Positions 29,521 through 31,180 of a DNA stretch of 64,000 nucleotides are shown one piece after another. The notes beneath the pieces were generated by a model. The model worked only from the letters and a program-made list of their open reading frames with translations, was not told the origin of the DNA and did not search any database. Within the stretch, counting starts at the first letter, position 1. Each line of letters begins with the position of its first letter. Made by a program: the position numbers and the translations under genes. The stretch lies in assembly GCF_055900595.2 (NCBI RefSeq), contig NZ_CM148325.1; one strand, written 5' to 3'.

Positions 29521-30171
29521 TTAATTTGATTTATTCGCATCCATCAACGCTTTTAACTGCTCCGGCGAAAACGGTGGTTTGCGTCGGTGCAACATCGCAT
29601 GGCAATTAGGGCACACAGGAAGCAAATCATTAACTGGACCCAGCTGGTAATCCTCTTTAATGGCTGAAAGCGGGACCAGGTGATGCACATGGATAAAGCC
29701 TTCAGCGATATCACCATAGATCTTCACCAGATCAACGCCGCATACTTTGCACTGGCATCCATGATGTTCGACCGCTTTATCTCGGGCCTTTTTATCGCGT
29801 TCATAGCGGTTTACTGTCACTTTTATCGCCGCACCTTCAAGGTATGTCTCCTGCGACGGCAACTCATCCGGGAACAGAACGTCGGCTATGGGAGCCGCAG
29901 CGGCTTTATCCTGATGAATATGAAATCCCTGCTCTATGAGTAGTTTGACGCATTTAGATTTTATTCCGCCGGTGAAATCCGCAGGGGTAAATTGCGTCCC
30001 CGTCATCAATGTCGCTGCGATGCCAGCAATCGCCTTCGAGGGGTAACGTCGGCCATGATATTCAATCTCATACAACCGCGCAGGCTGGAACTGATGAGTT
30101 TCTCCCGCATCCCATAAATGGATAGCTTCGATGATATACCGCCGCGGAAGATGATCAGGGAGTTTATTCAT
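29521..30171 (-). CDS. HNH endonuclease, possible modification-dependent (type IV-like) restriction enzyme
   Basis: C-terminal HNH motif CQCKVCG...HVHHLVPLS...CPNCHAMLHR; N-terminal ~120-aa domain of unknown function. Confidence 0.55.
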   Translation of the reverse strand: MNKLPDHLPRRYIIEAIHLWDAGETHQFQPARLYEIEYHGRRYPSKAIAGIAATLMTGTQFTPADFTGGIKSKCVKLLIEQGFHIHQDKAAAAPIADVLFPDELPSQETYLEGAAIKVTVNRYERDKKARDKAVEHHGCQCKVCGVDLVKIYGDIAEGFIHVHHLVPLSAIKEDYQLGPVNDLLPVCPNCHAMLHRRKPPFSPEQLKALMDANKSN

Positions 30172-30250
30172 GGAGAATGTCCTTATACGTTCTCAGAACA
30201 GGCAGCAAAAAAACAAATGAGATCAAGGTAATATATCTTCACTTGCAGGC

Positions 30251-31180
30251 TTGAACAGCAGAAAATTTGCGAGCATGATCGCAATTATTTCACTGCCAGG
30301 GATATCAATGGCTTCCAGTAAATCGCTACAGCAGGCAATTGCCAATATAAAAATCTGGCACAAGGGTGAACAGCGCGCGCCGCATAAGCCATTGTTATTG
30401 CTATACGTATTAGCGGGATACCTGAATGGACATCCGCGCCTTTTCGATTATGGCTCGGAAATCTACGAACCTCTGCACAGTTTACTGGAACGTTTTGGGC
30501 CACAGCGTTCACAGTACCGACCTGATATGCCGTTCTGGCGATTACAAGGCGACGGATTCTGGCAATTACACAATGCCGAGCTTTGCTCAACAGCAGGGAG
30601 CAGCCGACAACCGCCAGTGAAGGAACTGAACGAATACCACGTTGCAGGCGGTTTCGATGAACAGCACTACGCCCTGGTAACCGGCAATAAAAAACTCATC
30701 AATACTCTGGCGCAACAGATACTCGAAGCGCACTTCACCGAGAGTATTCAGGAAGAAATTGCTGACGAGCTGGGTTTTGATCTCCAGCAAATCCGTAAAC
30801 AGCGCGACCCGTTATTTCGCAAAAATGTATTACGCGCTTATAAATACCAGTGCGCGATATGTGGCTTTAATATGCGCCACGATGACACCACCGTCGCGTT
30901 GGAAGCGGCGCATATAAAATGGAAACAGCACGGCGGTCCTTGTGAAATTCCTAATGGCCTGGCGCTTTGCGCAATTCACCATAAAGCCTTTGATAAAGGA
31001 TCGATTGGCCTGGATGAAAATATGCGGGTACTGGTCTCGGATGCGGTAAACGGCGGAGGGATCGTTGAGAAACTATTCTGGGATTTTGACGGGAAAACTA
31101 TTGCGTTGCCGCAGGTGCGTAAAAATTACCCTTATGAGGGGTTTGTGGAGTGGCATCGGAAAGAGGTTTTTAGGGGGTGA
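30251..31180 (+). CDS. HNH endonuclease, putative restriction-type; true start may be an internal Met
   Basis: HNH motif CAICGFN...EAAHIKWKQHGG...LCAIHHKAFD at the C-terminus; divergent from the neighbouring HNH gene. Confidence 0.5.
   Translation: MNSRKFASMIAIISLPGISMASSKSLQQAIANIKIWHKGEQRAPHKPLLLLYVLAGYLNGHPRLFDYGSEIYEPLHSLLERFGPQRSQYRPDMPFWRLQGDGFWQLHNAELCSTAGSSRQPPVKELNEYHVAGGFDEQHYALVTGNKKLINTLAQQILEAHFTESIQEEIADELGFDLQQIRKQRDPLFRKNVLRAYKYQCAICGFNMRHDDTTVALEAAHIKWKQHGGPCEIPNGLALCAIHHKAFDKGSIGLDENMRVLVSDAVNGGGIVEKLFWDFDGKTIALPQVRKNYPYEGFVEWHRKEVFRG

Follow-up and report, generated by a model that had tools for sequence, protein, structure and literature searches.

A divergent pair of HNH endonuclease genes at the nan/fim hotspot of Escherichia coli: a presumed EcoWI ortholog and a McrA-like neighbour

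Layout of the locus

Two genes, here called A and B, lie head to head with a 136-bp spacer between them in the window, that is, the whole 64,000-nucleotide stretch of contig NZ_CM148325.1 that was analysed (Table 1). A sequence-only reading of this DNA had described two HNH endonucleases with distinct N-terminal domains, and both points were borne out: the two open reading frames were recovered where they had been placed, each with an intact C-terminal HNH motif, and their N-termini correspond to the head domain (A) and the sulfur-binding domain (SBD; B) of ScoMcrA from Streptomyces coelicolor. The title of that reading rightly called the pair divergent, while its wording 'back-to-back' does not fit the head-to-head arrangement. 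In a 99.7%-identical strain, RefSeq names gene A 'HNH endonuclease' (WP_001403934-like) and starts gene B at ATG 30308, which yields a 290-aa protein. A TTG at 30251, opening a 309-aa ORF, was rejected as the start of B on the grounds of this annotation and of an NF045808 alignment that begins only at residue 25, and because the DNA ahead of 30308 behaves like a promoter, not like a coding region. A small ORF overlaps the stop codon of gene A and lacks conservation outside E. coli; we discarded it as a part of the system, Citrobacter having just 48 nt after A. A 681-aa neighbour was assigned to no family in Pfam, NCBIfam, PHROGs and PDB sequence searches, and returned a single weak PADLOC match (PDC-M29B, E 0.0012).

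Table 1. Features of the A-B locus, in window coordinates
Feature	Coordinates	Strand	Description and basis
Gene A	29521..30171	-	216 aa, 'ScoMcrA_N head + HNH' endonuclease; ORF, RefSeq annotation, Pfam HNH
Gene A HNH (beta-beta-alpha-Me) domain	29572..29811	-	~aa 121-200; two CxxC zinc knuckles
Gene A N-terminal head domain	29896..30171	-	~aa 1-92; alpha-beta-beta-alpha-alpha-beta
A/B divergent intergenic region	30172..30307	.	136 bp; alignments
Gene B candidate promoter and operator	30251..30284	+	invariant in 11 upstream regions, 7 genera
18-bp palindrome TTGCGAGCATGATCGCAA	30267-30284		covers the -10-like hexamer of the candidate gene B promoter
Gene B	30308..31180	+	290 aa, SBD-HNH phosphorothioate-dependent restriction endonuclease, presumed EcoWI ortholog; NF045808, RefSeq name
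Gene B sulfur-binding domain (SBD)	30308..30757	+	~aa 1-150; phmmer alignment to 5zmo, 5zmn, 5zmm
Gene B HNH_2 catalytic core	30845..31015	+	~aa 180-236; Pfam PF13391, TagI 6ghs HNH match

Gene B and its upstream region

Gene B matched the NCBIfam model NF045808, 'phosphorothioated DNA-binding restriction endonuclease', with 437.9 bits (E 1.3e-131; cut-off 180 bits) over positions 2-284 of the 284 in the model, and the precomputed domains of its homologs are PF26340 (DNA-SBD_ScoMcrA) and PF13391. Its residues 6-142 align with residues 97-233 of the ScoMcrA sulfur-binding domain, and a motif alignment sets H26-K27 and M74-P75-F-W of B against H116-R117 and Y164-P165-F-W of ScoMcrA; the residues that form the SBD cavity (H, K/R, P and a hydrophobic lid) are present in B, and K and M at cavity positions are functional (Liu 2018). 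Indeed, a sulfur-binding fold and phosphorothioated DNA had been among the checks proposed in the sequence-only reading, and such a domain is what the N-terminus of B holds. The C-terminal half matched Pfam HNH_2 (PF13391, E 1.3e-9) and the HNH of TagI (6ghs), with C182-x2-C185, H202, N216 and H224-H225 intact and the same as in the E. coli W enzyme.

With that E. coli W protein (WP_000168572.1) gene B shares 285 of 290 residues (98%). The five substitutions, G156R, K179N, H208Q, K255R and G278V, fall in the linker and the HNH half and spare the HNH motif residues, and every SBD residue is the same in both proteins. B also occupies the chromosomal locus of the W protein, next to a nanS remnant. 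We take the W protein to be EcoWI, following the REBASE naming convention, and gene B would then presumably be an ortholog of this PT-dependent SBD-HNH enzyme. The report on EcoWI, a Type IIM/IV enzyme (Lutz et al. 2020, PMC7461809), and its supplement give no accession; EcoWI and gene B have the length of 290 aa and the SBD plus HNH_2 architecture in common, and the computed mass of B, 33.2 kDa, compares with 33.4 kDa in that report. EcoWI works as a homodimer with GpsAAC/GpsTTC as its recognition sequence; it cuts N7/N6 with Mg2+, restricts dnd+ plasmids and is active alone both in vitro and in vivo (PMC7461809).

What was demonstrated for EcoWI we infer for B because of the 98% identity to the presumed EcoWI protein. 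The SBD would insert the Rp sulfur of the phosphorothioate link in GpsAAC/GpsTTC into its hydrophobic cavity, and the C-terminal HNH_2 of a B homodimer, with Mg2+, would cleave the two strands about 7 and 6 nt downstream. Plasmid or phage DNA entering with a dnd modification would be destroyed in this way, and the unmodified host chromosome spared. None of the ORFs scanned within the 64-kb window was identified as a dnd or ssp gene.

Alignments of the A/B intergenic region revealed between-genera conservation limited to its gene-B-proximal part, where an invariant TTGA (-35-like) is separated by a 17-nt spacer from a -10-like hexamer, CATGAT, lying inside the palindrome. The element is invariant upstream of EcoWI-family genes, and 84 of 120 exact metagenomic occurrences of the palindrome are located just upstream of an SBD-HNH gene; in the window it matched once, against 0.1 matches expected. 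A consensus promoter scan returned no promoter in the A/B intergenic region, and the palindrome had no Rfam family match and no match found in the literature. On the basis of its conservation we propose this element as a candidate promoter and operator of gene B, and the invariant palindrome over the -10 of EcoWI-family genes is a hint that a type IV enzyme is controlled at the level of transcription. Two further roles were considered and rejected. Gene A is not favoured as a regulator of B through the palindrome, which is equally conserved without A. Nor do we take the palindrome as an operator controlling a wider regulon: in metagenomes, the 35 exact copies that do not adjoin an SBD gene (33 without SBD in the locus and 2 at a contig end) have unrelated flanks and fit chance.

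Gene A, a head domain joined to a McrA-type HNH

Residues 24-87 of gene A align with residues 29-93 of the ScoMcrA head domain, and the precomputed domains of its homologs are PF26345 (ScoMcrA_N) and PF01844. Towards the C-terminus, residues 141-197 matched Pfam HNH (PF01844, E 2.5e-4), residues 123-198 align with the HNH of EcoKMcrA (6ghc, residues 199-269; E 9e-4), and Foldseek matched the domain to 6ghc and to the Cap5 HNH. Gene A thus shares with E. coli K-12 McrA (EcoKMcrA, PDB 6GHC) the zinc-finger HNH pattern CxxC...HH...CPNCH...H, which is invariant in an 89-sequence alignment of the gene A family; C141, C144, H163, H164, C187, N189, C190, H191 and H195 are likewise invariant in homolog alignments. 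A difference from the canonical motif is D182, which stands at the middle Asn of H-N-H; Asp is kept at this position in at least 90% of homologs, and the replacement is probably tolerated.

On the other hand, the modified-cytosine (5mC/5hmC) binding N-terminal domain of EcoKMcrA is absent from gene A, the 6ghc alignment being confined to the HNH, and the unrelated ScoMcrA head stands in its place. This head matched no modification-reader folds such as SRA, EVE or PUA, and a head-domain-only profile search for other architectures retrieved just truncated PF26345 fragments, uninformative on fusions. The HNH type of gene A occurs with many alternative N-terminal domains, an architecture typical of McrA-like restriction enzymes, and PADLOC mREase_IV models matched both halves of the protein (E 5e-6 and 2e-5). 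Judged by its domains, gene A is an uncharacterised McrA-like nuclease of the head-HNH family. The proposal that both genes encode type IV enzymes with sensor-like N-termini therefore holds for B, as a PT-dependent SBD-HNH protein, and for the McrA-like HNH of A, while the sensor-like character of the A N-terminus is unproven; to call A modification-dependent is a guess, because its head resembles no known modification reader.

A different view of A, as a non-defence nuclease (repair, selfish/homing or toxin) or as a functionally decaying passenger beside EcoWI, would accord with a head domain whose function is given as unknown (PMC6224610), with the Asp at the canonical HNH position and with the loss of A from most E. 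coli genomes detailed below. We nevertheless consider it very unlikely. Purifying selection acts on gene A (between-genera pN/pS about 0.3), its catalytic and zinc residues are invariant, and it differs from the EC21Z-014 allele, next to which B is truncated, by 19 synonymous and 12 non-synonymous changes. No adjacent immunity-like gene is conserved outside E. coli, and the location in a defence island, the many alternative N-termini of the HNH type and the PADLOC matches over both halves also speak against this view. Moreover, phage relatives are nearly absent: 8 of 50,697 phage records matched A, and 8 matched B, essentially in the HNH part only, with the exception of OR851001.1, an unannotated 3,578-bp record with a 74% match to residues 41-290 of B. 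PHROG matches of both proteins are confined to the HNH core, and their chromosomal context is a defence island rather than a phage module. On this evidence we rejected A and B as phage or homing remnants. Such an origin and a loss of catalytic HNH residues had been named beforehand as findings that would speak against the sequence-only reading; neither was encountered, the catalytic residues being present.

Distribution and relationship of the two genes

The pair maps downstream of nanCMS, on the nanS side of the nan/fim defence hotspot in E. coli. In other strains the pair or its stubs stand beside different islands, namely McrBC and a type I RM system in W, Wadjet in C10 and AbiE in EC21Z-014, and beside none in K-12. 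Its presence at the nanS-side hotspot is of long standing and predates the present island at the locus. This bears on the suggestion, also made in the sequence-only reading, that both HNH enzymes interact functionally with the island's own methylation, for instance by sensing or avoiding the marks of the neighbouring methyltransferase. A type IIG/DrmMI-like methyltransferase gene (7329-12251, 1640 aa) does lie ~17 kb left of the pair, and type IV enzymes must tolerate resident methylation. However, the pair is separated from the methyltransferase cluster by a complete Druantia III and a complete Zorya II system and has wholly different neighbours elsewhere, and no co-occurrence signal was seen. 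Moreover, the SBD of B reads backbone sulfur, not base methylation. The suggestion finds no support, and we regard such an interplay as highly improbable.

Of 5,426 complete E. coli genomes, 1,706 carry an intact B and 1,238 an intact A, the latter meaning that at least 80% of the gene is kept; 325 genomes have both intact, versus ~389 expected by chance. Gene A is truncated in most of these genomes, with 106 bp kept in K-12. Strains W and C10 retain B next to a 105-bp stub of A, which in the locus studied here is intact, and EC21Z-014 retains A next to a 150-bp stub of B. Beyond these strains, B occurs without A in Salmonella, E. hormaechei, Buttiauxella and three distant homologs, and A without B in K. 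pneumoniae, Atlantibacter, Pseudescherichia and Escherichia sp. ESNIH1. The divergent pair is retained in E. coli, Citrobacter and K. quasipneumoniae, with differing flanking genes. A second, independent arrangement was found in Enterobacter (sp. MGH24) and Raoultella (R. planticola), where a ~220-aa Mrr_N-HNH protein is encoded 10-23 nt downstream of B. Its McrA-type HNH is ~55% identical to that of A and, like A, it directly adjoins an EcoWI-family gene, but its N-terminus is an Mrr_N winged helix (PF14338) instead of the head, and it is downstream of and co-directional with B, whereas A is upstream and divergent. In a palindrome-anchored metagenome sample, head-HNH genes were upstream at 16 of 68 loci and McrA-type HNH genes downstream at 5 of 63. 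A McrA-type HNH neighbour accompanies about a third of enterobacterial EcoWI-type genes, a rate above that of a purely accidental neighbourhood.

This recurrence, in the retained divergent pairs, in the metagenome sample and in the independently placed Mrr_N-HNH genes with the same HNH type, argues for a cooperating two-gene type IV cassette, in which the partner HNH would carry an exchangeable small DNA-binding domain (ScoMcrA head or Mrr_N) and might broaden the range of modified DNA restricted or bind the PT-dependent enzyme physically. The comparison with ScoMcrA points the same way, as A and B together cover its head and SBD, each with an HNH of its own (PDLC03662 29-92 in A and 94-231 in B). 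ScoMcrA, however, combines head, SBD, SRA and HNH in one chain (PDB 5ZMM), whereas here head and SBD are split over two divergent genes, A comprising head and HNH only and B SBD and HNH only; an SRA domain was matched in neither by Pfam, NCBIfam and PDB searches. Identity to ScoMcrA in the matched domains is low, about 27-37%, and the HNH of B is of the HNH_2/TagI type, not of the ScoMcrA type. Against a cassette stand the lack of positive association within E. coli, the survival of each gene beside the other's stub, the full activity of the EcoWI homodimer alone (PMC7461809), the different Pfam families of the two HNH domains and the conservation of the B promoter palindrome with or without A. 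Furthermore, a head domain is present in none of 133 full-length SBD-HNH representatives, and a search for head-SBD fusions among 150 SBD-HNH cluster representatives yielded none. Some representatives have long N-termini, which look like miscalled starts. We therefore judge a cassette to be unlikely.

A and B look like independent enzymes, and the probable reading of the locus is that of two separate single-polypeptide HNH nucleases of the McrA-like modification-dependent kind, B being the EcoWI ortholog and A a second nuclease. Cleavage by the EcoKMcrA-type zinc-finger HNH of A would presumably be directed by its ~90-residue head, in all likelihood a small module that binds DNA or serves in targeting. 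The two enzymes would not need each other, and their adjacency would reflect shared ancestry and the clustering of defence genes.

The locus is largely ordinary, because B is nearly identical to the characterised EcoWI and A is an uncharacterised McrA-like nuclease; B being essentially EcoWI, it mainly confirms the existing annotation of this gene, and the strain should restrict GpsAAC/GpsTTC phosphorothioated DNA. Three modest observations go beyond what has been published: EcoWI here has an intact, conserved and uncharacterised McrA-like neighbour carrying an orphan ScoMcrA head; the pair has occupied the nan/fim defence hotspot since ancient times and survives in K-12 as decayed stubs; and a palindrome over the -10 of EcoWI-family genes is invariant across Enterobacteriaceae. 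The A-B locus offers a convenient natural system for probing the role of the head domain. It is quite unlikely, on present evidence, that the head is an unrecognised reader or targeting domain, that head-HNH or Mrr_N-HNH proteins are recurrent partners of EcoWI-type enzymes in a two-nuclease type IV cassette and that the EcoWI-type gene is controlled through the 18-bp palindromic operator. If true, this combination would give the orphan head a function and reveal how type IV restriction is regulated.

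The divergent gene pair and its surroundings

The window is E. coli chromosomal DNA, 99.7% identical over 29400-31300 to strain SCPM-O-B-12142, in which RefSeq annotates the gene A counterpart as 'HNH endonuclease' (216 aa, minus strand) and that of gene B as 'phosphorothioated DNA-binding restriction endonuclease' (290 aa, plus strand). The two genes lie head-to-head, separated by 136 bp. A TTG at 30251, taken from an ORF listing, was rejected as the gene B start in favor of the RefSeq ATG; the longer ORF enters the NF045808 alignment only at its residue 25, and conservation 5' of 30308 forms a promoter-like block with no codon pattern. 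Coordinates, annotation and the corrected start therefore confirm the two divergent HNH genes noticed in the sequence-only reading.

Left of the pair, a complete Zorya type II system adjoins, back to back, a complete Druantia type III system; the complete genome nearest to this one has ZorA2 truncated by IS1. Further left, a three-gene cluster encodes a DrmD-like SNF2 helicase (952 aa), a type IIG/DrmMI-like methyltransferase (1640 aa) and a DruE-like helicase (2113 aa) with a C-terminus weakly similar to the tail of ZorE; this cluster is DISARM- or Druantia-like, yet above cut-off for neither system's curated models. It is the methyltransferase-containing system with which the pair had been proposed to interplay. 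The pair itself adjoins nanM and nanS remnants in the nanCMS/yjhR hotspot and is followed on the right by a 681-aa ORF and the core genes ahr, idnK-idnR, lptGF, pepA, holC and valS. In other strains its flanks are McrBC with type I restriction-modification (RM), Wadjet, AbiE or IS elements, so the hotspot, rather than the pair itself, accounts for adjacency to this particular methyltransferase. With flanks so variable, and with a sulfur-binding domain (SBD) in gene B that does not read methylation, the proposed interplay is unsupported. The ORFs of the 64-kb window that were scanned included no dnd or ssp genes.

Two further ORFs border the pair. The 681-aa ORF had no match in Pfam, NCBIfam, PHROG or PDB sequences and only a weak one in PADLOC (PDC-M29B, E 0.0012). 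A PD-(D/E)xK-like segment (...DCVILLDDCLIFTELK...) in its sequence raises the possibility that it is a further defence nuclease awaiting characterisation. On the opposite side, the ATG of a 25-codon ORF (MNAHPSRQNRKIASTNLSTIIPRLK) overlaps the gene A stop (TAATG). RefSeq calls it 'hypothetical protein', the small gene ythB is annotated at the equivalent K-12 position by the gene A stub, and no conserved counterpart was found beside gene A in Citrobacter.

Features of the HNH gene pair and its neighbourhood (window positions unless a locus is named)
Feature	Coordinates	Strand	Remarks
Three-gene cluster	988-15112	-	DrmD-like SNF2 helicase, methyltransferase, DruE-like helicase
Druantia type III, complete	15339-25009	-	DruE 15336-21659, DruH 21650-25009
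Zorya type II, complete	25221-28694	+	ZorA2 25221-26873, ZorB2 26880-27587, ZorE 27591-28694
nanM remnant	28904-29513		Left of pair; frameshifted kelch-repeat protein
25-codon ORF	29444-29521	-	
Gene A	29521-30171	-	216 aa, HNH endonuclease; RefSeq in SCPM-O-B-12142
Candidate operator block	30251-30284		TTGA, 17-nt spacer, 18-bp perfect palindrome TTGCGAGCATGATCGCAA
Gene B	30308-31180	+	290 aa; start ATG at 30308, as in RefSeq
Truncated ORF fragment	31225-31369		Right of pair
681-aa ORF	31799-33844	-	Directly right of pair
Mrr_N-HNH gene, Enterobacter sp. MGH24 locus (L012)	3201-3908		3' of EcoWI homolog, beside type I RM hsdR
Mrr_N-HNH gene, Raoultella planticola locus (L023)	5683-6354		3' of EcoWI homolog, beside type I RM hsdR

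Gene B and its upstream palindrome

Gene B scored 437.9 bits over the full length of NCBIfam model NF045808 (cut-off 180). Its first 142 residues align to the SBD of ScoMcrA (PDB 5ZMO, 5ZMN, 5ZMM), placing H26-K27 on H116-R117 and M74-P75-F-W on Y164-P165-F-W; Liu et al. show K and M to be functional there. Its C-terminus is an HNH_2 domain (PF13391), akin to that of TagI. An ortholog identical at 285/290 residues occupies the same place in the nan/fim region of E. coli W (NC_017635.1), and none of the five differences falls in the SBD or at catalytic residues. Going by REBASE naming, we take the E. coli W enzyme to be EcoWI. The paper characterising EcoWI, which gives no accession, reports recognition of GpsAAC/GpsTTC, cleavage at N7/N6 with a 1-nt 3' overhang, a preference for Mg2+, a dimeric state, better activity with two sites, and abolished transformation by dnd+ plasmids (PMC7461809). 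Given this biochemistry and the near-identity to the E. coli W enzyme, gene B is thus already known for practical purposes; by its sequence, it would encode essentially EcoWI, and the proposed type IV assignment holds here in the specific form of phosphorothioate dependence. Separately, a 3.7-kb metagenome contig carries a 62%-identical EcoWI homolog 270 bp from a divergent PUA_2 fragment and a DndB gene, a rare instance of dnd genes beside an SBD-HNH gene, an arrangement that Lutz et al. estimate at <3.6% (PMC7461809).

Within the intergenic DNA, strong conservation is confined to a block immediately 5' of gene B that stays unchanged across 11 upstream regions of seven enterobacterial genera, with or without gene A, including that of a homolog of only 51% protein identity. 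Across genera the palindrome reads TTGCGAGCAT(G/C)ATCGCAA, preceded by an invariant TTGA and the 17-nt spacer; a −10-like CAT(G/C)AT lies at its centre, 24 nt ahead of the gene B ATG, with TTGA at −35 spacing. Its half-sites (TGCGA-N6-TCGCA) resemble a CRP site. We found no Rfam family for the palindrome and no paper mentioning it. Among 120 exact metagenomic copies, 84 immediately precede an SBD-HNH gene, and the remainder have unrelated flanks, as chance would give. The palindrome is a candidate operator.

Co-occurrence of the two genes

We surveyed 5,426 complete E. coli genomes, scoring presence as at least 80% of the gene. Gene B was present in 1,706 and gene A in 1,238; both occurred together in 325, against ~389 under independence (raw counts, kinship ignored), which speaks against obligate coupling. 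So do the loci in which one gene persists beside a stub of the other, namely E. coli W and C10 (gene B beside 105 bp of gene A) and EC21Z-014 (gene A beside 150 bp of gene B). K-12 retains only stubs of both (106 bp of gene A, ~250 bp of gene B), between a nanS remnant and yjhR. EcoWI was characterised alone and, on the E. coli W assignment, presumably originates from a strain without gene A. Likewise, gene B stands without gene A in Salmonella, E. hormaechei, Buttiauxella and three homologs of 45-62% identity, gene A without gene B in K. pneumoniae, Atlantibacter, Pseudescherichia and Escherichia sp. ESNIH1, and none of ~70 distant loci with the same HNH type had an SBD within 6 kb. Other loci speak for some link, among them the same divergent pair retained in several Citrobacter species and K. 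quasipneumoniae amid different flanking genes. Also in favour of a link are Enterobacter sp. MGH24 and Raoultella planticola, where a 223-235-aa gene combining an Mrr_N winged helix (PF14338) with the McrA-type HNH of gene A starts 10-23 nt 3' of the gene B homolog, and a metagenome sample anchored on the gene B promoter palindrome, not on either protein, with head-HNH genes upstream in 16/68 loci and McrA-type HNH genes downstream in 5/63. On balance we consider a genuine two-gene cassette improbable, and favour the view that genes A and B are independent enzymes, neighbours by inheritance and perhaps to slight advantage.

Gene A and its head domain

Gene A matches Pfam HNH at residues 141-197 and aligns to the EcoKMcrA HNH (6GHC) over residues 123-198, while residues 24-87 align to residues 29-93, the 'head' domain, of ScoMcrA. 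Two PADLOC type IV models match accordingly: one, ScoMcrA-like and 560 residues long, covers the N-terminus with its positions 29-92, and the other covers the HNH part. A Foldseek search with the predicted full-length model agrees with these domains and adds matches to the HNH domains of McrA and Cap5. At E <= 1e-3, homologs formed 7,204 clusters, the majority matched via the HNH; full-length relatives (43-72% identity) come from Enterobacteriaceae, Pantoea, Shewanella and beyond, all with precomputed PF26345 (ScoMcrA_N) and most with PF01844. Both CxxC knuckles, the HH pair, CPNCH and the last His are invariant in 89 aligned homologs, and the motif's middle position, canonically Asn, is taken by D182, at least 90% conserved as Asp.

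Purifying selection acts on gene A, with pN/pS ~0.3 against Citrobacter and Klebsiella orthologs and 19 synonymous versus 12 non-synonymous changes against the EC21Z-014 allele, beside which gene B is truncated. Nor does the gene resemble those of phages: it matched only 8 of 50,697 phage records, each in the HNH part, and PHROG matches covered the HNH core only. For gene A the HNH is McrA-like, and the type IV reading is a plausible proposal. Liu et al. describe the ScoMcrA head as small and flexibly attached, with no function assigned (PMC6224610), and we found no later literature on it. Gene A adds an uncharacterised member to a known kind of enzyme. Gene B, essentially the known EcoWI, offers little that is new, and the orphan head domain carried by gene A merits a simple biochemical test.
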